NCBI GenBank assembly: GCA_035221665.1
Contig: CM069148.1
Span: 14,322,001-14,386,000 of the forward strand
Reading direction: 5' to 3'
Source of the DNA: Okamejei kenojei
Lineage: Eukaryota
DNA: 64,000 nt
Shown: one piece after another, positions 3,836-57,085 of the stretch
Layout: each line of letters starts with the position of its first letter
Position numbering within the stretch: position 1 is the first letter of the stretch
Notes under the pieces: model-generated
Databases searched by the model: none
What the model was told of the DNA's origin: nothing
What the model saw: only the letters and a program-made list of their open reading frames with translations
Translations under genes and position numbers: made by a program

Positions 3836-4494
3836 ATGAACAGTGTGCTGAACAGTGCACTTTGAGTATAAACCGTTAACACGAGGAGATTTGAAAACCA
3901 TTTCATTGTCAAAGTGACGATGGAGCCAGCTGTCTTCACGTCAGCTTCGAGGCCGTCCAGGCTACCAAGATGGTGGCAAGGGGGAAATTTGGTGCCTGAG
4001 AACGGTCTGCAAATTCACCTCCTATGTCTTCATAGAGTATCCTAAAGAACTGCGACCGGCTCAGGAGACTGGACAGGGTGACCCCAGCGCATGGAAGCAG
4101 TGGGTTGGCCTGACTGCAGCCGGCCGAGCGAGCGGATCAAGTGCAGCTCACGGCAGCTGCAAGGAGCAGTGGTGGAAGGAGCCGACAGCACAGCGCTGGG
4201 CCAGACCGACCCCTACTTCATCGATCCAATGCCACAAGAACGCCAGGCCTTAAAGTGAGAAAATAAAACAAATCCACATCTTCTTCATAAAATCATAACT
4301 GATAGGAGCAGAATTAGACCATTCGGCCCATCAAGACTACTCCGCCATTCAATCATGGCCGATCAATCTCTCCCTACTAACCCCATTCTCCTGCCTTCTC
4401 CCCATAACCCCTGACATACGTACAAATCAAGAATTTATCTATCTCTGCCTTAGAAATATCATTTCATCCACCCTTGGGCTATGATCGGACTTTT

Positions 4495-4900
4495 AGAAGA
4501 CTGAGGGGGGGAATCTTATAGAAACTTACAAAATTCTCAAGGGGTTGGACAGGCTAGATGCAGGAAGATTGTTCCCGATGTTGGGGAGGTCCAGAACAAG
4601 GGGTCACAGTCTAAGGATAAGGGGGAATTCCTTTAGGACTGAGATGAGGAAAACATTTTTCACACAGAGAGTGGTGAGTCTCTGGAATTCTCTGCCACAG
4701 AAGGTAGTTGAGGCCAGTTCATTGGCTATATTTAAGAGGGAGTTAGATGTGGCCCTTGTGGCTAAAGGGATCAGGGGGTATGGAGAGAATGCAGGTACAG
4801 GATACCGAGTTGGATGATCAGCCATGATCATATTGAATGGCGATGCTGGCTCGAAGGGCCGAATGGCCTACTCCTGCACCTATTTTCTATGTTTCTATGT
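4495..4900 (+). mobile_element. CR1/HER1 LINE 3' fragment
   Basis: Near-identical to about 2193-2595. Confidence 0.85.
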
Positions 4901-5350
4901 TTTCAAGAAATCTGCAAGACTGTGACTCTCGGCATGCTGTTCATGCTGTTCCATGAACACTACTGTGTTCATGTATGGTATCATTTGACTGGATCGTATA
5001 CAGAACAAGCATTTCAAAGTATATCTGTACACACGGCAATAATAAACTAATCTAAACTTATTTACTCTAACACGTTATCTCTAGTTCCTTGACTAAGCAG
5101 GAGTGTACTTTATTACTGAATTGCCAGATCCGTTTCTCCCGGATGGAGAAATCTCCTGAAAGCTTAGATCAATAAATGTCTGGAGGTTTTGAACGGGGCA
5201 AAACAGCAGTTAGCAACGTAAGGTCTGTTGGCTGGGAGAAAGCCTCCGCTCGGCACTTCTCAGTGTTACCCAAATAAGGCTCAAGCAGAATCTGACCAGG
5301 AAAGCTAATCGAAAGGGGGAGACAAGAGGCTTCAGAAGAAGACTTGGAAG

Positions 5351-7060: not shown

Positions 7061-7490
7061 GTACCTTTTACAGACAATCATAACGGTTTGATGTGGTTAG
7101 AGAGCTGGGAATGATACAGGCAATTGCCCCTCACAACAGAATCTCACCCCTCATTCTTATCCCCTTTGGCTGCCTTGATATTCATCGATGGGATGTTGGC
7201 ATGACTGGTTGGTTCAGTGTTTATTGCCGGAGCTTTCATGAACCCCAGGCGGTCAGTGTGACTAAAGGACTCATGCAGTGTTTTAGGGGAAGGGAGAGGC
7301 GGAATTTCAGTCTGAAAAAAGGTTCCGACCCAAAATATCATCTATTCTTTTTCTCCAGAGATGTTGCCAGACGCAACACTCCAGCATTTTGTGTCTATCT
7401 TTGGTACAAACCAGCATCTGCAGTTCCTTACTAAACAAATATAATAGTGGCATGTAAGAGGCTTTTGGATAGGCGCATGCGTGTCCAGGG

Positions 7491-8155
7491 TGTAGGAAGG
7501 AACTGCAGATGCTGGTTCAAACCGAAGGTAGACACAAAAAGCTGGAGTGACTCAGCTGGACAGGCAGCATCTCTGGAGAGTAGGAATGGGTGACGTTTTG
7601 GGTTGAGACCCTTCTTCAGACTGGTCAGGGATAAGGGAAACAAGAGATATAGATGATGAGAGATGTAGAGAGATAAAGAACAATGAATGAAAGATATGCA
7701 CAAAAATACCGATGATAAAGGAAACAGGCCATTATTAGCTGTTTAGAAACATAGAAACATAGAAACATAGAAAATAGGTGCAGGAGGAGGATATTCGGCC
7801 CTTCGAGCCAGCACTGCCATTCATTGTGATCATGGCTGATCGTCCGCTATCAATAACCCGTGCCTGCCTTCTCCCCATATCCCTTGACTCCACTAGCCTC
7901 TAGAGCTCTATCCAACTCTCTCTTAAATCCATCCAGTGATTTGGCCTCCACTGCCCTCTGTGGCAGGGAATTCCATAAATTCACAACTCTCTGGGTATAT
8001 AGGTTGGGTGAAAACGAGAAGCTAGTGCGACTTGGGTGGGGGAGGGATAGAGAGAGAGGCAATGCCGGGGCTACCTGAAGTTAGAGAAATGAATATTCAT
8101 ATCACTGGGCTGTAAGCTGCGAAGCAAGATCTGAGATGCTGTTCCTTCAATTTGC
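7491..8155 (-). mobile_element. Penelope-like element 3' fragment (GIY-YIG tail plus pseudo-LTR), interrupted by a CR1 tail at about 7745-7995
   Basis: Minus strand encodes a KLKEQHL..L.SLQP..MNI.F-like peptide, followed by the repeat carrying a CTGAAGA...AAAC hammerhead-like core. Confidence 0.7.
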
Positions 8156-10289: not shown

Positions 10290-11040
10290 GTAAGATCCTT
10301 TCTGCTTGGTTATCACTGATTTTGTAACTAGGCAGTGGGTTGGCTGTGCGTTACTTCAGCACGTCAGTGCAGGCACTGGGCAATGTTAGACGTCTCTATG
10401 TTGTCCTTGGTTACAAAAATAAAAGTCACACAGATCTGTCCGTGCCCCAATTCATTGAGCTATCCGAGGGGTTCGTGAACACAATCCGTCACACACATGG
10501 CAGGCAGGAAACCTACAGTTTTAGTCTAATCTTCTAGTCTGAAGAAGGGTCTCGACCCGAAACATTGCCCATTCCTTCTCTCCAGAGATGCTGCCTGCCC
10601 CGCTGAGTTACTCCAGCATTTTGTGTCTTCCTTTAGTTTTAGCCTAATTTTAGTTTTAGAGACACAGCACGGAAACAGGCCCTTCGACCCATCGAGTCCA
10701 CGTCGACCATCGATCACCCGCTCACACAATTTCTCTGTTATTCTACTTCCTCACTCCCTCCCTACACATTAGGGGAGACCTACAACGACCCATTTACATG
10801 TATTTGACCCACATCCCTCTAAACCTTTCATATTCATGTCGCTGTCCAAAATGTCTTTTAAAAGTTGTTATTGTACATGAACCGACTATCTCTTCTGGCA
10901 GCGCGTTCCACACACCCGCCACCCTCTGTGTGAAAAGGTCACCCCTCAGGTTCCTATTAAATCTTTCCTCTCTCGTCTTACTCTCTTGTTCTTGATTCCT
11001 CCACCCTGAGAATAGGAGTGTGTGCGTTCACCCTGTCTAT

Positions 11041-17275: not shown

Positions 17276-17282
17276 CCATATA

Positions 17283-18642
17283 CAGTGGCTTGCAAAAGTA
17301 TTCATACCCCTTGAACTTTTCCACATTTTGTCACGTTACAACCACAAACGTAAATGTATTTTATTGGGATTTTATGTGATAGACCAACACAAAGTGGCGC
17401 ATAATTGTGAAGTGGAAGGAAAATGATACATGGTTTTCAAATTTTTGTACAAATAAAAAACTGAAAAGTGTGGCGTGCAAAAGTATTCAGCCCCCTTTAC
17501 TCTGATACCCCTAAATAAAATCCAGTGCAACCAATTGCCTTCAGAAGTCACCTAATTAGTAAATAGAGTCCACTTGTGTGCAATCTAATCTCTGTATAAA
17601 TAACATTCTGTGATGGCCTCAGAGGTTTGTTAGAGAACATTAGTGAACAAACAGCATCATGAAGCCCAAGGAACACACCAGACAGGTCTGGGATAATGTT
17701 CTGGAGAAGTTTAAAGCAGGGTTAGGTTATTAAAAAAATCCCAAGCTTTGAGCATCTCACGGAGCACTGTTCAATCCATCATCTGAAAATGGAAAGAGTA
17801 TGGCACAACTGCAAACCTACCAAGACATGGCCGTCCACCTAAACTGACAGGCTGGGCAAGGAGAGCATTGATCAGAGAAGCAGCCAAGCGGCCCATGGTA
17901 ACTCTGGAGGAGCTGCAGAGATCCACAGCTCAGGTGGGAGAATCTGTCCACAGGACAACTATTAGTCGTGCACTCCACAAATCGGGCCTTTATGGAAGAG
18001 TGGCAAGAAGAAAGCCATTGTTGAAACAAAGCCATAAGAAGTCCCGTTTGCAGTTTGCCACAAGCCATATGGGGGACACAGAAAACATGTGGAGGAAGGT
18101 GCTCTGGTCTGATAAGACCAAACTTGAAGATTTTGGCCTAAATGCAAAACGCTATGTGTGGTGGAAATTTGATATTAGATCAAAGCATATTCATGTGTTA
18201 GAATGGCCCAGTCAGTCCAGACCTAAATCCAATTGAGAATCTCTGGTAATACTTGAAAATTGCTGTTCACAGACGCTCTCCATCCAATCTGACTGAGCTT
18301 GAGCTATTTTGCAATGAAGAATGGGCAAAAATGCCAGTCTCTAGATGTGCAAAGCTGGTAGAGACATACCCCAAAAGACTTGCAGCTGTAATTGCAGCGA
18401 AAGGTGGTTCTACAAAGTATTGACTCAGGGGAGCTGAATACTTTTGCACGCCACACTTTTCAGTTTTTTTATTTGTAATAAAATTTGGAAACCATGTATA
18501 ATTTTCCTTCCACTTCACAATTATGCACCACTTTGTGTTGGTCTATCACATAAAATCCCAATAAAATACATTTACGTTTGTGGTTGTAACGTGACAGAAA
18601 GTGGAAAAGTTCAAGGGGTATGAAAACTTTTGCAAGCCACTG
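17283..18642 (+). mobile_element. Tc1-like DNA transposon, defective with internal deletion
   Basis: TA-CAGTGGCTTG...CAAGCCACTG-TA ends; ~210-bp TIRs; transposase relic 17659-18423 (ARRKPLL, WSD, LEWPSQ) with stops and a deletion near 18165 that removes the middle of the DDE domain. Confidence 0.92.
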
Positions 18643-19078
18643 TAGTAGATCTGGAACTCACTGCCTAGCGGGGAGGGAGATTGCACTGTAACTGTGATCG
18701 GATGTGTGCTTGAAGAAATTTGCAGGGCTGAACATGTGACCGTGGAAGGTGGGACCAGGCTCGGTGGACACAACAAGTTTAAGTTTAGTTTAGTTTAGAC
18801 AATGAGCACGGAAACAGGCCCTTCACCCCACCGAGTCCGCGCTGATCACCCCCTACACACCAGGAACAATTTACAGATGCCAATTAACCTGCCAACCTGT
18901 ACGTCTTTGGTGTGCGTACAAACTCCGCGCAGACAGCACCCATAGTCAGGATTGAACCCAGGGCTCTGGTGCTGTGAGGCTGCAGCTCTGCCGCTGTGCC
19001 ACCCCTTGAATGGCCTCAGACGATCTCATCGCTACCCTGTGAATCGATAAAACACACAACTCTTCCCTTCCTTTGCAG

Positions 19079-21395: not shown

Positions 21396-23813
21396 CATTT
21401 ATTATGACGGTCACCATCTCAACTGTAACGCTCAACAGTTTTCACATCTCAAAGGTCCCAACCCTCCCAGTCTCCGTCTCCCACAACCTCCCGAGACCTC
21501 TGTACCTGGATCTCCGAAGCCGAGAGGCAGCAGCTCTACCTGCTGCAGCCCATGCCGCTAATCGATAGATGTCTGAGGGTGGCTCTCTCTGACTGCTAAT
21601 GTTTCACTGCGAAATAGAGGATTTTATTAAAAACAAAATCAGCGGCTGTGCAGAGAATTTGAGTACTCTGACGAAGTGATGAAGGCCATGTACAAGATGA
21701 AACTCCATTCCTTCATCTCTCGGCTGCTCATTGACCCACACAGGATGTAATGATTGGAATGCACCAGAAACATCAACTTAAATCCCATTGTGGCAGATGG
21801 GGAACAAATGCATTATATGCTGTAAATAAGTAATCTCTCCTTTATTTTAATTAAAATAAAATTGGAATAAAGAGCTTGCATCTACAATAGTAAGCGTGGA
21901 ACTACGTCACGGATGTAAAAGCCCTTATGGACTAAGAGTACAAATGGAAACGTTCAACTGGTCAAGCAGCATCTGTGAAGAGAGAGCGTTAATGTTTCAG
22001 GTTCATTGTCTTTCACTAAGTCACCACTGTGCTATGATAGTCATAGTGATAAACACGGAAACAGGCCCTTTGTTCTAACCCATCCATGCAGACCAAGTTG
22101 CCCGTTATCCCTCTAAACCTTTCCTTCACAGATATTTGTCCAAATATCTTTTAAATATTATTATTGTACCTGCCTCAAGCACTTCCTCTGACAGCCCGTT
22201 CCATATACCGACCACCCTTTGTGTGGAAAAAGTTGCCCTTCACGTTCCAATCGAATCTTTCCCCCTCTCACCTTAAAGCTATAGCCTCCAGTTCTTGATT
22301 CTTCTACCTTGGGAGAAAAAGGCTCTGGGCATTAATTCCCTTCATGATTTTATACACCCCCTTTAGATCACACCCCTCAGCCTCCCGCACTTCAAAGAAG
22401 AGTCCTACTCTGCCCAACCTCAAGTCCCGGCAACATCCTTGCAAAATCTTCTCTGTACTCTTTCCAATGTAATAATATCCTGCCTATAGCAGGGTGACTG
22501 ACCGAAACAGAATACAATACTCCAAGTGTGGCCTCACCAATGAGGCAAGGCTATTGGCCTGACAGGTTAATTCTGTAACTCTCTCCATAGATGCTACCAG
22601 ATTTCCTTTATCTCAGGTTTTTGGCATCTGCTGTAGGACAGCAGGCAGTTCTGCTGCCTCACAGCTCAGAGATCTGGCCTTGACCCCAAATTCTGGCACT
22701 GCCTGTGTGGAGTTTGCACGTTCTCCCTATGACCGAGAGGGTTCCAATTCTCTCCCACATCCCAAACAACCTGGTATGGTGGGACGAGAGAGATGTCAAA
22801 CCCCAACAAGCAATTCAAGTCCAAGAGCTATAGCATGTAAACAGGCCCTTCGGCCCACTTTGTCAACGCTAACCATGCTGGCATATTGGGTTAGTCCCAT
22901 TTACCCCTATTTGGCCCATATCCCCTTCATCTCTTCCTATCCATATACATGACCAGATGTCATTTATAAGTCCTAATTGTATCCACTTCTGAAGCTTCCT
23001 CCGGCAAACTGTACCTGATACACACTAAACATTGCCCATGAGGCCACTCTTAAATCTCTCCCCTCTCACATTAAGCCGATGCACTCCAGTTTTAGAATTC
23101 TCTACCCTGGGGAAAAAAACTAAGACTGAGTGTTCACGTTATCTATTCCCCTCATCATCTTGTACACCTTAATAAAGTCACCCCTCAGCTTCCTACCTCA
23201 TCGGTTCATGGAGCAAAATTAGGCCATCCAGTCCATAAAGTCTACTCCGCCATTCAATCATGGCCGATCTATCTTTCCCTCTCAACCATTCTCCAGCCTT
23301 GTCCCCATAACCCCCGACACCCTTACTATTCAAGAATCTGTCATTCTCCACAGCCTCCACAGCCGTCTATGGCAATGAATTCCACAGATTCACCACCTTC
23401 TGACTAAAGAAATTCCTCCTCATCTCCTTTCCAAAGGTACATCCTTTTATTCTGAGGCTACGGCCTCTGGTCCTAGACTCTCCCACCAGTGGAAACATCC
23501 TCTCCACGTTCACTCTATCCAGGCATTTCACTATTCGGTAAGTTTCAATGAGGTTTCCCCCCTCATCCAAAGAAAATTATTCTAGCTTATCCAAACTCCC
23601 TAAACCTCAAGCATGCAGGTGACATTGCCCCATTACCACGAAGCTCGGGGAAATGAGGGATGATAAAAAATAAATGCTGGCCACTAACTCACACTTCCCA
23701 CAAATTAGTTTAAATTATTCAGTTTTCTGTGCTTGTCATTTTAACTGTTCAGAACGCTTTGCTTCTGAAGCCCTGGTGCACAGGCATGACACTGGTCTTG
23801 TTTCCTTTCACAG

Positions 23814-23911
23814 ATCTGTACATGTTCCAATACTTCTTGATCGTAGTGCCCACTGAGATCAGCACCTACAAGTTCTCCACAAGCACCCACCAATTCTCGG
23901 TCACGGAGCAC
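23814..23911 (+). CDS. ERGIC2: ERGIC2-like coding exon 10
   Basis: tttcacAG acceptor; NLYMFQYFLIVVPTEISTYKFSTSTHQFSVTEH; GTGAG donor; 98 nt. Confidence 0.95.
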
Positions 23912-24101
23912 GTGAGCAAAATGTTAATGGTCTTCACCATCTCACACCTCAGCGCGTTGGGAAGCGTCACGCACTCTCATCCAGGGCTTCTTTCATTTGG
24001 CGCACAGTGCCATTCAGCACCAGAGCCCAAGAGTGAGACCTGGGTCACTGTGCTGGAATGGGTGCATGGTCAAGTTTCAGAGTCACATTTATCTAACCTG
24101 T

Positions 24102-24237
24102 GGGGGCGGGAGATTGCAACCTTCACGTGGTCAACCCTGTTTCGACAAATGCAATCAACCCGGCGTGCACAATCAAATAAGATCAAATAGAACAAGTTGT
24201 CCGACAACTTTAGGCTGTGCACGCCTAGAAGAAGATG
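24102..24237 (+). mobile_element. Short retroposon with HDV-like ribozyme head, copy D
   Basis: 11-bp TSD atctaacctgt at 24091-24101 and 24238-24248; GAAGAAGATG tail. Confidence 0.85.
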
Positions 24238-32859: not shown

Positions 32860-33051
<192 letters not shown>

Positions 33052-33169
33052 TTAATTTTTAATAATACAGCTTTTAAAAAAATCTAGACGGGGACATTTC
33101 AAAATTTCATAAACAAAGTCATGACTTGTGGAAGTCATGCTGCAGTTCTAACAGAATTTTGCAAATTGT

Positions 33170-33475
33170 ATTTAGTTTAGTTTAGAGATACAGCGCGGAA
33201 ACAGGCCCTTCGGCCCACGACGACCAGCGATCCCCGCACATTATCACTATCCTACACACTATCGGGACAATTTTTACATTTACCAAGCCAATTAACGAAC
33301 AACACTGTACGTCTTTGGAGTGTGGGAGGAAAGCGAAGAACTCGGAGAAAACCCGCGCAGGTCACAGGGAGAACGGACAAACTCCGTACAGACCCGTAGT
33401 CGGGTATCGAACCCGGGTCTCCGGCGCTGCATTCGCTGTAAGGCAGCAGCTCTACCGCTGCGCCACCGTGACCGC
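33170..33475 (-). mobile_element. Young full-length HE1/V-SINE-like SINE
   Basis: Intact A box TGGCGCAGCGG and B box GGTTCGATACC, CpG-rich, (CTAAA)n tail. Confidence 0.85.
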
Positions 33476-33499
33476 CCTGTTCTGTATGCAGTACTGTAT

Positions 33500-34110
33500 G
33501 CAGTCCTAGTCATTTCATTACAGGAAGGATGTGGAGCCCTTGGCATTTGAGTATGAGAGTCAGGAAATCGTGTTGCAGCTTTATAGGAGTTTCGTTAGGC
33601 AGCATTTGGAGTATTGCGTGCAGTTCTGGTCATCCCATTACAGGAAAAATGTGGAGGCTTTGGAGAGAGTGCATAAAAGTTTACAAGAACGCTGCCTTGA
33701 ATTGAGGGTGTTAGCCTCAAGGAGAGGTTGGACAAACTTGGCTTGCTTTCTCTGGAGTGTCCAAGGCTGAGGTGAAACCTGATAGAGTTATATAAAATTA
33801 TGAAAGGCAAAGATAGGGTAGACAGTCAGAATTTTTTCGGGGGTAAATGTCAAAGACTAAAGAGAATAGCTTTAAGGTCAGAGAAGCAGAGTTTAAAGGA
33901 GATGTGTAGAGCAGATTTTCTTTTTACACAGGGTGGCAAGTACCTGGAACACATTGCCAGGGGTGGTTGTAGAGGCAGTTATGAAGGTGGCGTTTAAGAA
34001 TCTTTTAGATGGGCAACATGGATATGTCGGAAATGGAAAAATATACATCAAATTTAGGCAAAGGACATTAGTTTAACCTGGAATCACGGTTGGCAGGGTC
34101 ATTGTGGGAG
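33500..34110 (+). mobile_element. CR1 LINE 3' fragment
   Basis: LYRSFVRQHLEYCVQFWS motif. Confidence 0.8.
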
Positions 34111-34470
34111 GGTGCTGTAACACATTGACTATTTAGCCTACACGACTTGGATAAGCCAGAATAATGGTAGAGCATTTTAAGCCTTACACAGGATGCACAG
34201 TGTAGGGTCAGCTTAATCCTTCACTGTTGATCAGGGGATGGCGGATGGGCGGATGGAGAAGTAAGGAGGTGGGCATGTACAAGACATGTGCGAACAATTT
34301 TCAAACAAGGTGACATCTACCACCAACCCCAAATCAGCCAAAATAGAACTGCAGCCTCCCACCTCACTTCACCCAAGGATTTGACCCCAACCAGATCCAT
34401 TATTTCTCTCTTGCAAGATATGCAATTTCAATTTCCCACGGCACGTCCCAAGTTCACAGTGCTAACGTAC

Positions 34471-34598
34471 TTGATCAGATGTTTCCTGGCTGCCGGGAGT
34501 CCAGAGAGCTCCTCGTTGAGTACATACTTCTTGGTTCCCATGCAGTAATTCTCCATGTATTCAGCCCAGTGCAGCTGTCTTACATCAAAGTTGAATAC
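34471..34598 (-). CDS. FAR1: FAR1-like exon
   Basis: [43 protein letters not shown]; 128 nt; AG/GT. Confidence 0.95.
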
Positions 34599-34703
34599 CT
34601 GAGAGGCAAAAAACAAAACTCAGTTAAACATTGCTCGGATACACAGGAGATTTATTTGAACCGTTGAACCATTAATGGGAAGCCCAGTGGAATTTCACAA
34701 AGT

Positions 34704-35223
34704 GGAATTGCAGACAAAAATAAGACCCATCGCAGCACATCTGGACCTCTAACGAAGCAGAAAGTATATTGGGGTTAAGCATCATGCAAAAAGGACATCC
34801 GTTTCAGGGAAGTTTCCACCAGAGGGCTTTGGGAACAGTTGATAATTTTTCAGTAATAAAAGCAGAAAATGCTGGAAACACTCAGCAGGTCCGGCAGTAT
34901 CTGTGGAGAGATAAACGCAGTTAATGCTTCAGGTCCAGGCCCCTTCTTCAGAACTCCCAACTTTTCAGTTTGAAGATAGATTGCAAATAAACCAGAAATC
35001 TGCTGAGGAAGTCCTTTTAAAGAAAAGGCAATGAGTTTTATGTCTTGAACACAGTTTGCAAAATTGATGGAGACAGATTTAAAATTACACCATTTGCAAT
35101 ATTGATGGGGGACAGGTTTAAAATGAAATACAAAAATGGAAATGGACAAACTCTAGAAAGGAACAATTACAGGGCTGAGGATAAAAGAGCACAGTCAAAG
35201 GGGGTAATTGGAGGCGTCACTTA
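34704..35223 (+). repeat. Left arm of ~520-bp inverted duplication
   Basis: Reverse complement of 36849-37368. The mirror ORFs 34850..35149(-) and 36923..37222(+) differ at only 10 of 99 residues. Confidence 0.95.
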
Positions 35224-36848
35224 CAGTGCCCTTCATAATGTTTGGGACAAAGACCCATCATTTATTTATTTGCCTCTGTACTCCACAATTTGAGATATGT
35301 AATAGAAAAAAAAAATCACATGTGGTTAAAGTGCACATTGTCAGATTTTAATAAGGGGCATTTTTACACATTTTGGTTTCACCATGTAGAAATGACAGCA
35401 GTATTTACCATAATGTTTGGGACACATGGCTACACAGGCATTTGTAACTCCTCAGGTGTGTTTAATTGCCTCCTTAATGCAGGTATAAAAGAGCTCTCAG
35501 CACCTAGTCTTTCCTCCAGTCTTTCCATCACCTTTGGAAACTTGTATTGCTGTTTATCAACATGAGGACCAAAGTTGCGGCAATGAAAGTCAAAGAAGAC
35601 ATTATGACACTGAGAAACAAGAATAAAACTGTTAGAGACACCAGCCAAACCTTGGGCTTATCACAATCAACTGTTGGAACATCATTAAGAAGAAAGAGAG
35701 CACTGGTGAGCTTACTGATCACAAAAGGATTGGCAGGCCAAGGAAGACCTCCACAGCTGATGATAGAAGAATTATCTCTATAATAACGAAAAATCCCCAA
35801 ACACCTGTCCGACAGATCAGAAACACGCTTCAAGAGTCAGGTGTGGGTTTGTCAATGACCACTGTCCGCAGAAGATTTCATGAACAGAAATACAGAGGCT
35901 GCACTGCAAGATGCAAACCACTGGTTAGCCGCGAAAATAGGATGGCCGGGTTACAGTTTGCCAAGAAGTACTTAAAAGAGCAACCACAGTTCTGGAAAAA
36001 GGTCTTGTGGACAGATGAGCTGAAGATTAGCTTATATCAGAGTGATGGCAAGAGCAAAGTATGGAGGAGAGAAGAAACTGCCAAAGATCCAAAGCATACC
36101 ACCTCATCTGTGAAACATGGTGGTGGGAGTGTTATGGCCTGGACATGTATGGCTGCTGAAGATACTGCCTCACTTATCTTGATTGATGATACAATGCTGT
36201 TGGCAGTATATAGCGAATTCTGAAGTGTATAGACACATCCTATCTGCTCAAGTTCAAACAAGTGCCTCAAAATTTATTGGCTGGCGGTTCATTCTACAGC
36301 AAAACAATGATCCCAAACATACTGCTAAAGCAACAACGGAGTTTTTCAAAGCTAAAAAATGGTCAATTCTTGAGTGGCCAAGTGAATCACCCGATCTGAA
36401 CCCAATTGAGCGTGCCTTTTATATGCCGAAGAGAAATCGGAAGGGGACTAGCCCCCAAAACAAGCATAAGCTAAAGATGGCTGCAATACAGGCCTGGCAG
36501 AGCATCACCAGAGAAGACCCCCAGCAACAGATTATGTCCACGAATCGCAGACTTCAAGCAGTCATTGCATGCAAAGAATATGCAACAAAATACTAAACAA
36601 GACTACTTTCATTTACATTACATTGCTGTGTCCCAAACATTATGGCGCCCTGAAATGGGGGAACTATGTATAAACACTGCTGTCATTTCTACATGGCGAA
36701 ATCAAAACATATAAAAATGGCCTTTATTAAAATCTGACATTGTGCACTTTCACCACATGTGATTTTTTTCAATTACATATCTCAAATTGTGGAGTACAGA
36801 GGCAAATAAATAAATGAGTCTTTGTCCCAACCATTATGGAGGGCACTG
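35224..36848 (+). mobile_element. Tc1-like DNA transposon, near full-length, IR/DR-type TIRs, frameshifted transposase
   Basis: TA-CAGTGCCC...GGGCACTG-TA ends; ~200-220 bp TIRs with CATAATGTTTGGGACA repeated at both ends; transposase relic 35562-36596 (WTDE, KHGGGSVM.W, QQNNDPKH, SPDLNPIE). Confidence 0.93.
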
Positions 36849-37368
36849 TAAGTGAGGTCTCCAATTACCCCCTTGACTGCGCTCTTTTATCCTCAGCCCT
36901 GTAATTTTTCCCCTTCTAGAGTTTGTCCATTTTCCTTTTCGTATTTCATTTTAAATCTGTCCCCCATCAATTTTGCAAATGGTGTAATTTTAAATCTGTC
37001 TCCATCAATTTTACAAACTGTGTTCAAGACATAAAACTTATTGCCTTTTCTTTAAAAGGACTTCCTCAGCAGAATTCTGGTTTATTGGCAAACTATCTTC
37101 AAACTGAAACGTTGGGAGTTCTGAAGAAGGGGCCTGGACCTGAAGCATTAATTGCGTTTATCTCTCCACAGATACTGCCGGACCTGCTGAGTGTTTCCAG
37201 CATTTTCTGCTTTTATTACTGAAAACTATCACCTGTTTCCAAAGACCTCTGGTGGAAACTTCCCAGAAACGAATGTCCTTTTTTGCATGATGCTTAATCT
37301 CAATATACTTTCTGCTTCGTTAGAGGTCCAGATGTGCTGTGATGGGTCTTATTTTTGTCTGTAATTCC
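36849..37368 (-). repeat. Right arm of ~520-bp inverted duplication
   Basis: Reverse complement of 34704-35223; ends in a local hairpin at 37351-37387. Confidence 0.95.
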
Positions 37369-39011
37369 TGGAATTGCAGACAAAAATGGACCCTGTAAGA
37401 AGTATAAAAAATTATGAGGCATAGATAGAGTAGAAGAAGACTGCCAATGATTCCATCGTTAATAAACTCAGGTGTTTAGTGTTAAAGCCAAGTTGACCAT
37501 TTTAGAAAGTGCCCAACAATTCGCAAGTTACCTTGCCTCAGTGGTCTTATGCACTCTGCGGAAAAATTAATATCAGCTTCTTGACGCAAGTCTAAGAGTA
37601 GCTGAGTTATTTTAGTCTCAGTTACTGAGAACAAGGAAGCAGATGCTTTTACAGATTATACACTAGCTACCATGTGGCATGCAGTATATTTAATAAATCT
37701 GGTTGCTATCTGATCACAACCATAAAGTGCTGGAGGAATTCAGCAGTCAGACAACATCGGTGGAGGTGATCGATGGACAACCTTTCAGATTGAGGCTCTC
37801 CATCAGTCTTCAGTCCTAAAATGTCGTCTTGTGCATTCCCTCCCTAGCTGCTGCCTGGCCTCTTGAATTCCTCCTTGTTGTTCCACTTTCCAAAGTTTCA
37901 CTTGCTCGAGATTCCTGCATCTGCAGTCTCGAGGCTGCAGTTAAGGTTATAATGTTCCAAACTGCTGACCAATCCCAAATACACACCTCTCCTTTATTCA
38001 CTTAAACATTTCCTTTCTGGAACAATGTGTTCAGACTTTTTTCAGGGCAATGATCACCTTCAATTGTCTCCTGGAAACCAGAAGTAGCACAAGTTGCACT
38101 TTTGACTTTGCTGTTACGGGATTAATAAATCAAAGACATTAATTCTAGGTTGACACAATTTAAAAACAGACAAAACCCTCCCTTCCTAGCTATCAGAGCT
38201 GAGAAAATTATTATATAGAGCCTTTTATTGTACAAGACCTCCAAAGTCAATAAATAGGAGTATTTGAGCATAAAAAGGCCAATCAGCCCACCTGGACAAT
38301 ACTGACCAAGTTAGCACACTGGACTAGGCTTAATTGACTGCATTAGGGCCATATTATTCTACACCCTTCCGATCCATAGACCTGTCCAAATATAGTATAA
38401 AAATCGTAACCGTATCTGCTTCTATAGCTTCCGCTGGCAGTTCATTCCAGATACGGATTACCCTTTGAATGAAAAGTTTGCCACCAAGGTCCCTCTTAAA
38501 TCTCTCCCATCTCATCATAGGACTATGCCCTCTAGTTTTAGAAGCCTCTACCCTGGGGAAAAGGCTGAGCATTCACTTTATCGATGTCCATCTTGATCTT
38601 GTACAGCACAATGGAGGTCACCCCTCAGCATCCTACGCTCCAAAGAAAGACCTAGCCTATGCCACCTCTCCCTATAATCAAGCCAGCAAGTCCAGGTAAA
38701 ATCCTGGCGAATCTCTTTTGCACCCCTTCTAACTTAATCACAATATTTCATTAGTAAAACACAGAAAATACAGTAGCAAAATTTAGTCAAAAGTTAAAGC
38801 TCATGGCACAGGCAGCAACTTGTTAGGATAGAGATATAATTATCTAACTATCAAAATAGGAAGTGTGTCATTTCTTGCTTGGCAAAGTGCAAGGAGTGGT
38901 GTGCGGTGGTCTGAAATATTAATAATTTGTAAAGATGCCAAATGAAGGTGTGGTTGCTAAACTTGCCGAAGGCACAAACGCGGATGGGAAAACAAGTTAC
39001 AAAGAGGCATA

Positions 39012-39611
39012 CAGTGCCCTCCATAATGTTTCGCTTTCCTAGTATAACTACACGCAGCCTTTTATAAATCGTGCAAAAAGACACCAAAGGTAGACAAAAA
39101 TGCTGGAGAAACTCAGCGGGTGAGGCAGCATCTATGGAGCGAAGGAAATAGGCGATGTTTCGGGTCGAGACCCTTCTTCTGTCTGATGTCTCCAAGAGTT
39201 TTAATCTTAGTCTCATAATGGCTTTTTTGACTTTCATTGGCACAACTTTGGTCCTCATATTGATAGACAGCAATAAAAGTTTCCAAAGGTGAGACTGGAG
39301 GAAAGACTAGATGCTGAGAGCTCTCTTATACCTGCATGAAGGAGGCAATTAAACACACCTGAGCAATTACAAACGCCTGTGAAGCCATGTGTCCCAAACA
39401 TTATGGTGCCCTGAAATGGGGGGAATATGTATAAATACAGGTGTAATTTCTACATGGTGAAACCAAAATGTGTAAAAATAGCCTTTAATAAAATCTGACA
39501 ATGTGCACTTTAACCACATGTGATTTTTTCTATTACAAATCTCAAATTGTGGAGTACAGAGGCAAATAAATAAATGATGGGTCTTTGTCCCAAACATTAT
39601 GGAGGACACTG
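39012..39611 (-). mobile_element. Internally deleted derivative of the 35224-36848 Tc1 family
   Basis: One full TIR plus the transposase 5' start (about 39180-39611, inverted). Only 20 bp of the other TIR remains (CAGTGCCCTCCATAATGTTT at 39012). Interrupts a CR1 fragment. Confidence 0.8.
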
Positions 39612-40627
39612 TGAGAAGGATGCAAACGGATATAGATTGATCAAATGACTCGGCAAAGATATGGCAAGTCGAATATAGTGTGGGAAAATGTGACTTTGCC
39701 CATTTTAGCAGAAAAGCAAAAAAATCATATCATCCAAATGGCAAGAGAGGTGCAGAGGTATCTTGGTGTCTTTGTGCACAATTTATAAAAGGCTGCAAGT
39801 AGTTACACTAGGAAAGTGAACCTAATGTTTTGTTGAGCAAACAACAAAGTGTTGTCAGAACTCAGCGGTCAGGTAGCACCTGTGAAGGGAATGGACAGAC
39901 TACGTTTCAGGTCAGGACCTTTCTTTCCACAATGTTGTTGCTTGTTACTAGGGAACTGAATACAAATGTAGGGAGGTTGCGCTTTGGGTACATTGGGCAT
40001 CGGTGAGACAATAGCTGGAGTACAGCGTACAATATTGTTTTCCTTACTTAAAGGAAACCTGTAAATATACTGCAAGCATTTCACCAATAGCTCCTTGGAC
40101 TGAAACCTGGAAATAGGCAGATGATCTTGAAAACCTACAGGTTAGGCTTGTATCCACTGGAGTTCACAGAGGGAAAACTTGAATAAAAACAAGACAGGAT
40201 AACAAAGAATCTATAACTACAGTATCGCTCTTTCATGAGGGGTTGCCAATTTAAGACAGATTGGTAGGAAGTAATTGCAGATGCTGGATTAAACAGAGGG
40301 TCAGGCAGCATCTCTGAAACGTCACCTATTCCTTTTCTCCAGAGATGCTGCCCAACCCGCTGAGTTTTACTCCAGCTTTTTGTGTCTAAGTTTGGAATTA
40401 TTTCCCTGTCAGTGGGTTGAGTACCATTAGAATTCTCTTTCTCAAAAGACCGTGGATGCAGAGATTAGATATTTTTAAGTTAGATTAGATGGACTCCTGA
40501 AAAATAAGGGCATTGAAGGTTATTGCAGTGATCTAGAGTTATCTAGTGATCTAGAGTTGAGGTTATTTAGTGATCTAGAGTTGAGGTTAAAAATCAGAGC
40601 AGCCATGATCTCACTGAATGAAAGACT

Positions 40628-41180
40628 AGAAACATAGAAACGTAGAAAATAGGTACAGGAGGAGGCCATTCGGCCCTTCGAGCCAGCACCACCATTCATT
40701 GTAATCATGGCTGATTGTCCCCAATCAATAACCCGTGCCTGCCTTTTCCGCTATCCCTTCATTCCACTAGCCCCTAGCGCTCTATCTAATTCTCTCTTAA
40801 ATCCATCCAGTGATTTGGCCTCCACTGCCCTCTGTGGCAGGGAATTCCACAAATCCACAACTCTGGGTGAAAATGTTTTTTCTCACCTCAGTCTTAAATG
40901 GCCTCCTTTTTATTCTAAGACTGTGGCCCCTTGGTTCTGGACTCGCCCAACATTGGGAACATTTTTCCTGCATCTAGCTTGTCCAGTCCTTTTATAATTT
41001 TATATGTTTTTATAAGATTCCCTCTCATCCTTCTAAACTCCAGTGAATACAAGCCTGGTCTTTTCAATCTTTCCTCATACGACAGTCCCGCCATCCCAGG
41101 GATCAATCTGGTGAACCTACGCTGCACTGCCTCAATCACAAGGATGTCCTTCCTCAAATTAGGAGACCAAAACTGTACGC
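40628..41180 (-). mobile_element. CR1/HER1 LINE 3' fragment
   Basis: CVQFWSPNLRKDIL..VQRRFTRLIPGM peptide; (TTTCTATG)-type tail. Confidence 0.85.
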
Positions 41181-42125
41181 AAAGACCAAAACTGTACACA
41201 ACTAAAGGGGTTAAATGGCCTACTCTGGTCCTTAATTCATATGTCCATCTGTCCTATTGCACTGTAGAGCCTGACAAAGAACTTTGCTCGTTTGAGAGAT
41301 GCAAGGTGCTGAACAATTAGCTGTGGAGTCTGCTACATGTGATTTGGTTGCTGTGCAGTAGAATCCCATATTTTTACAGCAGAGACCAAATTATTATCTG
41401 TGATGGACACTGCCAGGTCCATCACAGATACTGAGCTCCCTGCAAATAAAGGGACCTTCAGCATGCTTCATTACCTTGCTCTCATCTTGTTACAACTATT
41501 GGGAATGCGATAAAGGAACCTGAAAACCGTGAACAATGTTCAAGAACAGCTTAGACACAAAATGATGGAGTAACTCAGCGGGACAGGCAACATCTCTGGA
41601 GAGAAGGAACGGGTGATGTTTCGGCTCGAGACCCTTCTTCAGACTAGTCCAGGGAAAGGGAAACGAGAGATATAGACAGTGATGTAGAGATATAGAACAC
41701 GTGAGAGGTAACGTCGTGTTTAAGGGTCTTCATCAAACTCATAAACACTGCACTAATCTCAACTATGAACACTATGGACCGTGTCTTTGGTTGCACTATG
41801 AGGTTTTATTTGTGCTCGTATTAAGGCTATTAACTAACATAATTTTTTAAGGCCCTGTTAAGCTGCTGCAATAAAGAATTTCATTGCTCTGTTGTCAGTA
41901 CATGTGATAAAAATAGTACATGGGTAAGAAAGATTTAAAGGTAAATAGGTCAAACACAAGCATATGGAAAACTCTAGATGGGGCATCTTGCTCAGCATGG
42001 ACAAGTTGTGCAGAAGAGCCCGTTTCCGTGCTGTAGGTCTCCAGGAGAAACCTTGGTGCCCAAAAAGGACCATGATAAAGTCACACTGTAAAGGATGGAT
42101 AGTCAAGATATATATTATGACCTAC

Positions 42126-42255
42126 CTTCTTGTCATCTGGGTTCATCTGACTCATGAGCATATTTATATTATCAGTGTTCCACACCCATGTATGGCTTGT
42201 GAAGTATTCGACCAACATCATTGATTTATGAAGCCGATTAATGATTTTCATCATC
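42126..42255 (-). CDS. FAR1: FAR1-like exon
   Basis: [43 protein letters not shown]; 130 nt; AG/GT. Confidence 0.95.
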
Positions 42256-42989
42256 CTAAAAACAAAGTTAATTAGTGCAATCAAACAGAGATGTAACAGC
42301 TGTATCCCTTATCAGAAAGAAATGACAGGTACAACAAGCATCATATCACTGAATACATGATAAATCAGGCAGACTAAAGTTGCGGACAAGAACTCTGAAA
42401 CAAAGGAGACTACAGAGAGTGGTAGATATCGCCCCGTGTATATCAGGTATTGACCTCCTCACCAACAAAGGGATTTATAGGGGGCGCTCCCTCAAAAAGG
42501 CAGCGATATCAAGGATGCACAAGTCCCAAGTCCCTGGACATGTTGTTATTTCCCTACTACCTAAAGGTGGTACAGGAGCCTGAAAACCATGACCACCAGG
42601 TTCAAGAACAGCTTCTTCCCAGCAACTATCAGGTTCCTGAACACCACACAAGATTAACAACTATGGCGTTCTATTGACTATGCAGGCTTCAGCATTGCGC
42701 TAGTATTAGTTATTAATTTATTGACATTGATTATTGCATATTTATCTGTGTGTTAGGGCCCGTAACTGATGCACAGGTAAGAATTTCATTGATTCATTGT
42801 CAGTACACATGACAATTGAACACTCATCGAAACATAGTTAGTTCAGCAAGAGTTAGGTTAAATTCCTGCAGTTTTAAAGAACTTAAATTTAGTTACATCT
42901 GGTAGGGAAGGAAATTGGACAGGTTTGCAGTTTAATTTTAAATTCAAATTCAAATTAATTGTCACATGCACCAATTAAGGTACAGTGAT

Positions 42990-43280
42990 AAAGAAGGAAC
43001 TGCAGATGCTGGAAAATCAAGGGTACACAAAATGCTGGAGAAACTCAGCGGGTGCAGCAGCATTTATGGAGCGAAGGGGATAGGCAACGTTTCGGGCCAA
43101 AACCCTTCTTCAGACTGATGGGGGGTGGGGGGCGGCGGGGCGAAGAAAGGAAAAAGGAGGAGCCCGAGGGCTGAGGGAGAGGTAGGAAGGGGAGGGGACA
43201 ACAAGGGTTAACAGAATTGAGAGAATTTGATGTTCATGCCAAGAGAATGTAGACTCCCCAAGCGGAATATGAGGTGCTGT
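42990..43280 (-). mobile_element. Penelope-like element 3' fragment with hammerhead-like motif
   Basis: Minus strand 43083-43118 reads TCAGT-CTGAAGA-A-GGGTTTTGGCCC-GAAAC-GTT-GCC; GIY-YIG C-terminal remnant at about 43215-43280. Confidence 0.7.
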
Positions 43281-45670
43281 GGTAAACAAGGTACAGTGAT
43301 ATTTGAGTTACCATGCAGCCTTACAATTAAAAGAACATATCACAATTAAAAGAATGATAGAACTTAACATAAACATTCACCACAGTGATCACTGTGATGG
43401 AAGGTAAAAGTTCAGTCAGTTCCTCCTATTATGTCTAATATAGCGCTAAAAATAATTTTACATATGGATATTAAATTAATCGACTAAAGAACTCCACAAC
43501 ATTAGTGTTATTAACCATTTCAATGTAATCCACCCAAATGCATTCTCAAATCAAACAGGGCAAGTTTCGACACTGCGGTTTATTTTCAGGGGCAATGAAT
43601 ATAGATCAGAGATCCAATGAGCTTACTTCTGTTACTCTGCAGGATTTCAATTAGTAAACAAGGCTACAAAAAGGAGCAGGCAAAATTGCAAAGAGCCAAA
43701 ACAGTGGTGACACACAGCATTCCGTATCAACTGAGGGTGAAAAGCCTTTGTCAGAGATTAGATGAATAGTGTTTGCAAGTCAATAATACAGTAAATAATA
43801 ATACAATAAATTTAGGGTGGCATATTAGTGCAGAGGTAGAGTTGTTTCCTCACAGCACCAGAGAGCCGGGTTTGATCCTGACTATGGGTGTATTCTCCCC
43901 GTGACTGCGTGGGTTTAATCCGGGCACTCCCTTTTCCTCTCACTTTTCAATGACGTGTAGGTTTGTCGACTAAATGTTCTCTGTGAATTGCCTCTGGTGT
44001 GCATGACACAAAAGTGGGATACCAGAACCAGTGGATGGGTGGATCGCTGGTCGGCGTGGACCCAGTGGGATGAAGGGCCTGGTTCCATATCTATATCTCT
44101 AAATTCTAAATATATTTGTTTTCTCTTTGCACGCAGAGTTCAGGTGGACAAGTACTCCAATTTGCACGAATCATACATTTTTACAAATGAATATTTGAAT
44201 CCTAATTGAATCAGACATTGTGGGAAAGTTAAACATCATCTCAAGTTTGCTATTTATATATCATTAGCTGAATATATTGTTCACAATAGTTTACACCCTA
44301 GGCTATTGGTTTATGAAGTATGTAAACCCAGCTGCTTCCATATGCGATTCTGCTGTTGTGGGACTATAATTGGGGCATATATTTTCAGTAAAATTATTAA
44401 GAGACAGCAACAGCAATGTTTAATAAGGAACAACATCTATTTTCCAACAGCACCACACATTCTATTAAGCAAGGCCCAAGAAAGAACATTAATACCCATC
44501 AATTTCAGTTTAACGATACAATCTTAGTAGCAAGAGATTCTTATCACTTCCCCATAAAATACCCGTGCGCCCAGTTATTATCTTTGTGGATGTATTTACA
44601 GGTAAGGTACAGCATTATCTTAAAGCTCAAGGCACAAAGTGCTGGGGGAACTCAGCAAGTCAGGTAGCATCTGTGGAGGGAATGGACAGATGACGTTCGA
44701 GTCAGGACCCTTTTTCTTCAGACTGTGCTTAAGATTCCAGCATCTGCAGTCTCGTGTGTTTCCATTTATTTTATTGCTTCTCACTTACCAAACATTGTGT
44801 CTGTTTATAAGACAAAGTCAGTTAATCCATCTTGGGCCAAACTTGGGCAAATAGCACTAGTTTATACTGGACATCTAGGTCAGCATGGATGAGTTGGGCT
44901 AAAGGGCCATGCTATGTGACACCAACTCAAGAAATTGCCAGGGCACCTCAGTTTGCCTTCAAAGGCGTACCAACAAGAGTGCTGCATGATATACTTTTCT
45001 CACAAACTAAACCACAGCATAAAGGTGTCAGACAGTAGCCTAGATATAAAAATTATACATGATGTACCACTGGCAGGCTCCAAGTGCTACATTTGCACAC
45101 TAGCTCAATGCTTAAATGGCACAATTATTTTGCCACATGCATCGTGCTGAACTCAGTGGTGCAGCTGGCAGTGTTAGGGGCACAGCTGTAGAGTTGCTGC
45201 CTTACCGTGCCAGAGACCCAGGTTTGTTCCTGACCATGGGTGCTTCAATAAAAATAGTTAATTGTCCCTAATCTGTAGGAACAGGCGAAGGGAATCGCTG
45301 GTCGGCATGGACTCGGTGGGCCGAAGGGCCCAACTCCACACTGTCTCTCACTAAACCTCACAGCGCCAGAGACTCCAATTAAAGTTTGGCCTCGGGTGCT
45401 GTCCGTGTGCAGTTTACACGCACTACCTGTGACTGCCTGGGTTTGCTCTGGTTTGTCCCACAGACGCATGGGCATGTAGGTTAATTGGATGTGTAGGATG
45501 TGGATGAGAAAGTGGGATAACATAGAACGAGTGTGAATGGCTGGTCAAGTGGTGTCAGTGAGCCGTAGGGCCTTTGTCCATGCTGTATATCTAAACTGAA
45601 CTCAGAGTCAATGATATATTGAACTGGTCAATCTGAACCTGCTCCTCTAGCAGACCAGTTCCAGAAGTGA

Positions 45671-55433: not shown

Positions 55434-56869
55434 TCCAAACTAAGCACAGGATCAGAGCTTAGTCTCTTTCCAATATTGCCTTGGCTGAGTGAGTGAGGCG
55501 CAGAGAGAAGAGGGCGAGATCGGCCGCAAGCACTCACTACTTGGGGGGAATTACACCCAGGATCTCACCTTGATTCACAGACCCCCAAGCTTGGCATTCC
55601 ACTGCCTTGCTTATACAAAGCATGACGAAGATACCAAATGTTGTGTCCGATAAATCACCGCATTCTGAAATTGTCTGTTTAACCCTTCCACTGCGCTGAG
55701 TATTCCAATTAAAATTACTGCAAAACGCACAAATGCAGAGTTAAACAGCTTCAAGAATAGTGCCGACAAAGCCAGCATTTGTGAGCTCCCAAGTTACAAA
55801 GGCTATTCTCCACTGAGCTATTCTTACCAGAAGTTTGTGACCAGTCAGAAAGAGAAAAGGATCATACAACAATGAAGGTACTGTGTGACTGACAACAACT
55901 TAATAGTGGTGCAAAAGAGGATTGGAACTCAGGTTTACACCAGGGCGTCTCATTGCCCATTCTAAAGGATTAATCTTGAAGGACAAATTTGTATGATAAT
56001 CTACAGAGAAAATAAGTATTACTGTCGTTTTGAACAAAGCATACCAGATACTTGTGGGATAGTAATGGTTTAAAGAAAAATTCCATGCTTCAAAGTCATA
56101 AAATATTGCTCCAATTTCAAATAAAAGTCAATCCTCCAAGTGAAAACTGAAAATGCTGGAAAAACTCAGCACTGGGGGAAAGAGGAATGGTCAATATTTC
56201 AGCTCCAAGACCCTCAGGCATCCAAAGTGTTAACTCGTGATTTTTTCCAGATGCCGACTGACCTGATCAGTTTCCAGCAGCTTATTTCAAATTTCAGCAT
56301 CTGCAGATTTTCAACTTAATGCAGATTTTGCACTTGAGGATTAGTTGCATCAGGTTAGATGTCATCATTGCCCTTCATTTTAGATTTACCGGGTGATGGT
56401 AAACAGATTTGTGTTACATTGCAACTGACCCAGCTCTGGTGAAAGTTAAAGATACAAGTGTTCCTTGCCCACAGCAACAATAGACACTTCCCTTTTTCAG
56501 ATGACTCCTTCATCACCCTGCCCCAGATGTCCCCATTATGAAACTGGAATTTGAGTAGTGTTTGTGGGCAAACACTTTGAAGCTGGAAGACTTCCTTTAA
56601 ATATGCAAACAGCTCTCAACATTTCAAAGTATGAGCAATTTCAAGATTAGCTAAAATGAGAGCAAGTACACGTGTTCTAGCTCCACAACATTCTTTCAGA
56701 AAGTGCGACACATCACATCAATTAGTATTTATGGTTGTCACAGTCAATCACCCAGTTGCTGTCATTTGTACTTTAAATGTCCAGGTGAAGACTATAAATT
56801 GAGGGCTGAGAATTAGAGTACATTTTTATTGATTCAGTTAAGCATACAGGGTAAAGCTAGCCACCATTA

Positions 56870-57085
<216 letters not shown>

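Follow-up and report, generated by a model that had tools for sequence, protein, structure and literature searches.

Inverted host DNA beyond both ends of an intronic Tc1 transposon in the skate Okamejei kenojei: a probable template-switch rearrangement

How does the terminal symmetry of a cut-and-paste transposon come to be prolonged into host DNA on both sides? The question is raised by a stretch of the skate Okamejei kenojei (assembly GCA_035221665.1, contig CM069148.1, positions 14,322,001 to 14,386,000, forward strand; 64,000 nt, hereafter the window), in which a Tc1 element lies in an intron of the FAR1 gene. The symmetry of its terminal inverted repeats (TIRs) crosses both TA dinucleotides (35222-35223 and 36849-36850) and then continues through 518 bp of non-transposon DNA (segment A). 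The explanation that we consider probable, with real room for doubt, is a one-off, locus-specific template-switch rearrangement seeded by both inverted TIRs of an ordinary Tc1 insertion. The central parts of the structure are the following.

34704..35221, plus strand: segment A, host flank, putative original and template (from alignment)
35222..35223, no strand: left TA target-site copy (from the sequence)
35224..35425, plus strand: left TIR of the inverted repeat/direct repeat (IR/DR) type, 202 bp (from a three-way alignment)
35562..36596, plus strand: dead Tc1 transposase in three frames, with breaks near 35665 and 36200, antisense to FAR1
36628..36848, minus strand: right TIR, 221 bp, putative first template-switch site
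36849..36850, no strand: right TA, scar-free join to the inverted flank (from the sequence), putative copy of the left TA
36851..37368, minus strand: inverted copy of segment A, putatively new DNA, differing from A at 27/516 sites

From left to right, the order of segments is L, A, TA, TIR, transposase, TIR, TA, inverted A, the first 19 bp of A, and R, L and R being the DNA on the two sides. Self-BLAST of the whole window gave 34704-35407 against 37368-36671 in inverted orientation as the top non-self match (92.9% identity, E 0.0), and global alignment placed the left arm at 34704-35425 (722 bp) and the right arm at 36628-37368 (741 bp) around a spacer of 1202 bp (35426-36627). The original prediction, made from the letters of the sequence, had described 34704-35223 as the reverse complement of 36849-37368, with symmetry past the TAs and arms of about 730 bp around a spacer of about 1.2 kb; both analyses bear this out. 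The arms differ by 40 substitutions in 714 aligned columns and by 7 indels, and their longest perfect run is 73 bp; between the two copies of A, outside the TAs, 15 transitions and 12 transversions were counted. No further copy of A was found within the window, save of its repeat fragment (see below). Segment A also holds a 38-bp tandem duplication (35049-35123 and 36949-37023), which is present in both arms and is thus older than the inversion. For the open frames of 90-100 amino acids that the arms contain (35021-35290, 36920-37219, 34853-35152), Pfam gave no match.

The core, 35224-36848, is a Tc1 (DD34E) transposon: it is bounded by TAs, its transposase matches HTH_Tnp_Tc3_2 (E 5.9e-18) and DDE_3 (E 1.2e-7), and the catalytic spacing is 34 residues, the second Asp position now being Asn. 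IR/DR elements are defined by long TIRs with outer and inner direct repeats; both TIRs here have outer and inner direct repeats with a common 17-bp core, and the left TIR lacks 25 bp that the right TIR and a second family copy have. The nearest named relative, at 75% identity, is a fragment from the skate Rhinoraja longicauda; identity to copies from Polypterus and anurans is 60-65%. In the prokaryotic genome collection, the exact 39-nt TIR pattern had no match, and none of 79 matches to the transposase pattern was confirmed. The TA target, TIRs of about 220 bp with two direct repeats, and the helix-turn-helix and DDE domains are as in the Tc1 (DD34E) IR/DR elements of fishes and amphibians; unlike these, the copy here is inactive and has host flank mirrored outside both TAs.

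What happened at the outer end of the right arm is recorded in three further features.

37351..37387, no strand: fold-back junction, 18-bp arms with 17 Watson-Crick pairs around one central base
37386..37436, plus strand: R, where the DNA resumes in a fragment (50 bp) of a further old repeat, resembling 33773-33823
34691..34709, no strand: quasi-palindrome straddling the left arm boundary, 8-bp stem and 3-nt loop, candidate stall or fold-back site

Directly after the right arm, 37369-37387 repeats 34703-34721 exactly (19/19), a third, forward copy of the arm start that takes in base 34703, outside the left arm. This exact forward copy makes 37351-37387 a hairpin, and 5 extra pairs past a small bulge extend it to 37393. 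Its fold has a z of -9.5 (0/200 shuffles as good), and no other hairpin in the 64 kb combines 12 or more pairs with no more than one mismatch and a 0-5-nt loop. Neither the fold-back nor the third copy figured in the original prediction. At the distal junction both a TIR end and a TA are missing, and strand transfer by the transposase, as in the aberrant transposition that was one of the two routes initially proposed, finds no support there. Beyond it, 37386-37436 aligns to 33773-33823 with a local score of 54 (30 shuffles reached no more than 39; E 0.074 with nhmmer), and the R fragment may have been the end-joining partner through imperfect microhomology. At the left boundary, the 34691-34709 stem has 7 Watson-Crick pairs and one G.T; 7 of 8 pairs in this geometry occur at 731/63800 window positions (1.1%). 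The original right flank was sought with the end of A (35090-35223), which had no significant match in the window (none with nhmmer; best score 43, against up to 43 in 15 shuffles).

From these features, the following course of events may be proposed. A break or collapsed fork, possibly arising from attempted excision, would leave a 3' end in the right TIR; this end would anneal, on its own strand or on the sister, to the left TIR at a distance of 1.2 kb, and outward copying would then cross the TA and take in 518 bp of the left flank. It is the fold-back junction that lends the process a direction, with the left arm as template and the right arm as copy. Synthesis would halt in the small hairpin 34691-34709 and turn back, recopying 19-25 bp. 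A U-turn onto the displaced strand would yield the observed junction without further change; alternatively, a snap-back at the template hairpin may have been followed by loss of 6 bp at the tip. The end would then be joined to DNA near 37388 by imperfect microhomology with deletion of the original right flank, or a later deletion may have trimmed a full inverted triplication to the same product. The outcome would be a probably neutral intronic palindrome that forms a long, editable stem in the FAR1 pre-mRNA and is removed by splicing. The first suggestion, break repair that starts in one TIR and runs through the other into the DNA beside it, is supported, whether as break repair or as template switching, and the fold-back and the end joining with right-flank loss are added to it.

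In favour of this template switch stand the third copy and the unique hairpin at the arm end, the quasi-palindrome at the left boundary, and the position of R inside a repeat fragment, as well as the comparable divergence of flanks and TIRs and the lack of the extension at both termini of the second copy (see below). Several points weigh against it. The direction of copying and the deletion of the right flank are reconstructed from this one allele. The repeat match at R is modest (E 0.074), the fold of 34691-34709 is not significant (z -1.1; 30/200 shuffles), and a simple snap-back predicts a junction 6 bp longer than that observed, with one other base changed. A 9-bp direct repeat at the left boundary (34686-34694 and 34701-34709) could itself be a junction scar. 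No switch point stands out within the TIR (change-point permutation 39/300). In the transposase, 14 of 133 residues are changed in this copy alone and 21/111 otherwise invariant columns deviate, counts in which CpG decay and family-specific changes may be contained. Finally, the inverted repeats used in yeast origin-dependent inverted-repeat amplification (ODIRA) are preferentially spaced by 40-80 bp, against a 3-nt loop here (PMC10766183).

Age was judged from divergence. The flank arms differ at 27/516 sites (5.2%; 95% interval 3.5-7.5) and the TIRs at 13/195 (6.7%; 3.6-11.1), a comparison proposed in the original prediction and now run; the two are indistinguishable (Fisher p 0.47), which suggests that the rearrangement is about as old as the insertion. 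The left TIR with the internal part differs from the second family copy at 26/387 sites (6.7%). Among the TIR differences, 3 occur only in the left TIR and 10 only in the right, while at 7 the second copy stands apart from both, a star-like pattern with no sign of late homogenisation. The 14/133 private transposase changes suggest more decay than 2.6% per arm, so the event may post-date the insertion and an excision trigger would be unnecessary; on these counts it is old, dating from the insertion or from some time after. Two finer signals were tried and rejected: a divergence step inside the TIR (best split 35326, 30/614 vs 10/100, p 0.04, yet equalled in 39/300 permutations), and a mutational strand bias in the arm made by copying (10:3 for G/A vs A/G, p 0.09; 14:8 for GC-left vs GC-right, p 0.29).

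Segment A also contains an old repeat.

34859..34952, plus strand: old dispersed-repeat fragment, mirrored at 37120-37213, Penelope-like by its hammerhead-like core, the label being unproven

Its 22 local matches at E<=0.05 mark it as a dispersed repeat. The hammerhead-core pattern together with stem II occurs at 2/7 core matches, both in this repeat family, and Penelope repeats in fishes are marked by minimal hammerheads (PMC4209133). The core is broken in the arm copy; Rfam (33000-43500) returned no hammerhead, with 2 weak matches below the gathering score, neither in the arms; and a Pfam scan of 67 frames, of which 65 were long and stop-free and 2 were short ones around the second Tc1 copy, showed no reading frame of Penelope type with reverse transcriptase plus GIY-YIG. 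Of the earlier statement that the arms hold an old Penelope-repeat fragment and unique DNA, the dispersed repeat thus stands, and the name Penelope is plausible. Short dispersed-repeat copies with a hammerhead-like core and stem II, as in Penelope terminal repeats, also lie at 10539, 41642 and 43113, and several copies form inverted pairs, e.g., 7308-7623.

Other histories could have given the same arrangement. A transposase-driven fusion of sister chromatids would begin with cuts at the right element end and at the sister's left flank end, whose complementary overhangs are religated; Tc1-type cleavage leaves 3-nt cohesive ends. The resulting long palindrome would later have broken near 34703, been capped as a hairpin, opened 19 nt off-centre and joined to R. 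The exact, scar-free TA join, an age near that of family activity, and a hairpin with a 1-nt centre, as suits covalent capping, are all accommodated, and alternative transposition of maize Ac/Ds does yield inverted duplications (bioRxiv 10.1101/2020.01.07.897926). The route nevertheless passes through a dicentric or acentric intermediate, calls for another break, leaves the hairpin at the template boundary unexplained, and is at odds with a distal junction lacking TIR and TA, whereas Ac insertion sites carry target duplications (same source); we consider it unlikely. Were copying to have run in the reverse direction, the right arm would be original, with a pre-existing 18-bp palindrome, and the left arm would have been copied and joined to L by loop-out end joining. 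The 9-bp direct repeat at the left boundary, of a kind found at 150/63940 positions, resembles a loop-out product (PMC5728401). The only such hairpin in 64 kb must then have pre-existed, centred exactly at the end of the copied tract, and the deletion must have halted within 105 bp of the FAR1 splice acceptor, which makes this direction improbable, slightly more so than the fusion. Ectopic capture of A and Tc1 into an L-a25-R site, with no deletion, is a further possibility; it would call for an additional switch and for breakage precisely where the R repeat fragment begins or ends.

That the entire 2.7 kb is a composite or foldback element with 730-bp TIRs is suggested by the long inverted arms and by the 19-bp direct repeat at both outer ends. 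This repeat overlaps the arm and is therefore no target-site duplication; the outer ends have neither TA nor Tc1 terminus, A is absent from 2/2 further family termini in the window, and it contains an old repeat fragment and has no additional copy there, so a composite element is highly improbable. Fold-back junctions are a known artefact of sequencing reads, and a chimeric read of this kind could in principle have produced the palindrome during assembly. The few-percent arm difference had already been taken to speak against an artefact, and the alignment agrees: there are 40 substitutions against 7 indels, including a 25-bp deletion, the TIR differences polarised by third copies fall in both arms (3 left, 10 right), and the neighbouring exons are intact. 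An artefact is scarcely credible.

Is the event peculiar to this insertion? Four termini of this Tc1 family lie in the window, two of them (39012 and 39611) in an internally deleted copy without A.

39010..39613, minus strand: second copy of the Tc1 family, internally deleted, control without the A extension

The 520-bp extension, the presence of which on other copies had been named as the mark of a composite element, was accordingly sought at these termini and found at 0/2. The second copy consists of a 20-bp TIR remnant, a 58-bp inverted flank copy, a Penelope-like repeat and then the left end of the element. The 58-bp tract (39030-39087) derives from 39763-39820 with 89.7% identity (alignment score 93; best other match in the window, 26); its source lies some 150-210 bp beyond the other end of the copy, and entry was via imperfect microhomology. 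As the tract adjoins the Penelope-like repeat, either element could be responsible. Both family copies in the window thus have inverted left-flank DNA at the right end, 518 bp outside the TIR in one and 58 bp inside a TIR remnant in the other. It is a doubtful proposition that, in this chondrichthyan Tc1 family, the long IR/DR TIRs repeatedly bring about the capture of their own flanking DNA in inverted form. If this were true genome-wide, it would be an undescribed family-level process building kilobase intronic palindromes and long double-stranded RNA (dsRNA) in shark and ray genomes, and the many copies would make it possible to survey, for a vertebrate germline, how long template-switch tracts are and what their junctions look like.

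The second copy was inserted at a TA (the other side now TG) in a reading frame that has no Pfam match and looks like a reverse transcriptase of a long interspersed nuclear element. The Pfam scan gave matches in 2/67 frames: a different Tc1 family at 17787 and COPIIcoated_ERV at 23714. The former belongs to an element at 17281-18644 with 215-bp TIRs (95% alike), TA on both sides, an internally deleted transposase and no flank extension; the latter is a 36-residue match (E 2.7e-5) in a stop-free frame on the plus strand (23714-24187), possibly an exon of a neighbouring gene. A 410-bp direct duplication (2188-2594 and 4492-4901; 96% identity, 2.3 kb apart) belongs to a repeat family also present at 40627-41182.

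What the palindrome means for its host depends on the gene around it.

34471..34598, minus strand: penultimate coding exon of FAR1, 128 nt, acceptor AG at 34600-34599, Pfam Sterile PF03015 (E 4.6e-10)
34599..42125, minus strand: penultimate intron of FAR1, holding the whole structure, 7527 nt, GT..AG (from the tblastn exon map and splice sites)

With FAR1 of the catshark Scyliorhinus canicula as query, tblastn picked out 9 minus-strand stretches that resemble exons; at 34471-34598, identity to residues 422-465 of the query is 98%. The left arm had been said to end about 105 bp from the splice acceptor, and the distance is indeed 105 bp. In the predicted minus-strand fold of 34450-37500, the arms form 685 pairs, the longest helix being 69 bp, and the arm duplex has -1154 kcal/mol against -282 for the TIRs alone; the predicted stem in the host pre-mRNA is about 3.5 times as long as the TIRs alone would give. 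In the same fold, 42 bases of 34599-34660 and 81 of the exon 34471-34598 are paired, none with the arms. The very long dsRNA stem anticipated near the acceptor is thus upheld as a prediction; since in this fold the acceptor and the exon do not pair with the arms, an effect on splicing or skipping of the exon is unsupported. As a likely ADAR substrate, the stem would probably be edited. Could it be functional, modulating splicing or editing of FAR1, or feeding small RNAs against the Tc1 family in the manner of Mu killer and Ac killer? The strength of the predicted duplex relative to that of the TIRs is in favour, and host-transcribed inverted duplications do silence maize transposons (bioRxiv 10.1101/2020.01.07.897926). 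Against this, the arms have diverged as fast as the TIRs, neither acceptor nor exon pairs with them, the extra 520 bp are not transposon sequence, and inverted pairs within a single intron favour canonical splicing, according to a review (PMC12861293). A functional stem is thus very unlikely; there is no sign of function for the palindrome, and the intronic event is probably neutral. Elsewhere in FAR1, two similar alternative exons lie on the minus strand (55833-56001 and 56870-57010); the first, nearest to the catshark query isoform, has an in-frame TAA, perhaps as a mutually exclusive exon in decay.

Taken as one intronic event that is probably neutral, the locus changes little; its importance would rise if such events recurred in the Tc1 family, or if the stem were edited or affected FAR1. 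Read as proposed, it would be the fossil of a small inverted-repeat template switch, with both TIRs of a single DNA transposon as the pair and host DNA mirrored outward, an indication that dead Tc1 copies can reshape their surroundings without transposing.

Among known systems, a Tc1/mariner element with host flank mirrored beyond both TIRs was not found described in the literature covered, mostly titles and the beginnings of abstracts, with few subscription papers. By analogy, the same two-junction logic may be recognized in inverted triplications set between duplications (DUP-TRP/INV-DUP), ODIRA and snap-back synthesis-dependent microhomology-mediated end joining (SD-MMEJ), and an inward form of TIR extension in Galileo. 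Invertron plasmids in fungal mitochondrial DNA (pAL2-1, kalilo) are likewise TIR-bounded inserts with de novo inverted repeats of host DNA on both sides; unlike the present nuclear cut-and-paste transposon, with its single event, they are linear, protein-primed mitochondrial plasmids in which these repeats are a recurrent by-product of integration (PMC1864894). Mu killer and Ac killer of maize share the transposon-linked inverted duplication, from which a host promoter gives dsRNA; there, transposon DNA was duplicated and silencing was shown, whereas here host intron was duplicated and a fold is predicted (bioRxiv 10.1101/2020.01.07.897926). In terms of the snap-back SD-MMEJ junctions defined in PMC5728401, the inverted motif and the imperfect microhomology are present, and the primer geometry requires deletion of the tip.

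In DUP-TRP/INV-DUP, the first switch takes place at inverted repeats and the second junction is made by end joining or microhomology (PMC11293582). The locus, as read here, has the nearby inverted-repeat switch and reverse synthesis of that system, in which small interspersed repeats (Alu) can serve (PMC11293582), and both its junctions: an inversion within or at the TIR pair, and a return to forward orientation at the fold-back at 37369. Unlike there, the repeats are the TIRs of one transposon, the scale is 0.5 kb and the right flank is apparently lost; the copy profile also departs from that class, the third copy being 19 bp (25 with the bulge), with no second Tc1 or A after it. Yeast ODIRA places its junctions at short interrupted inverted repeats, sometimes with secondary deletion of an arm (PMC10766183). 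The inversion junction at a short, pre-existing interrupted inverted repeat is common to both, integration in yeast being by homology (PMC10766183); here, unlike in ODIRA, the spacer is lost at the junction, from which the 6-bp tip of the 34691-34709 hairpin is missing, and there is no evidence of an origin. With a third copy of 19 bp and a junction spacer that has been lost, the locus is a full member of neither DUP-TRP/INV-DUP nor ODIRA, both of which it resembles in its working. In Galileo of Drosophila mojavensis, a break in one TIR is repaired from the other with copying past the TIR, and the internal sequence recruited stays mobile (PMC3573991); here copying would have run outward into host DNA, beyond what the transposase can carry. 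By this analogy, the Okamejei locus may be regarded as the outward counterpart of TIR extension in Galileo.

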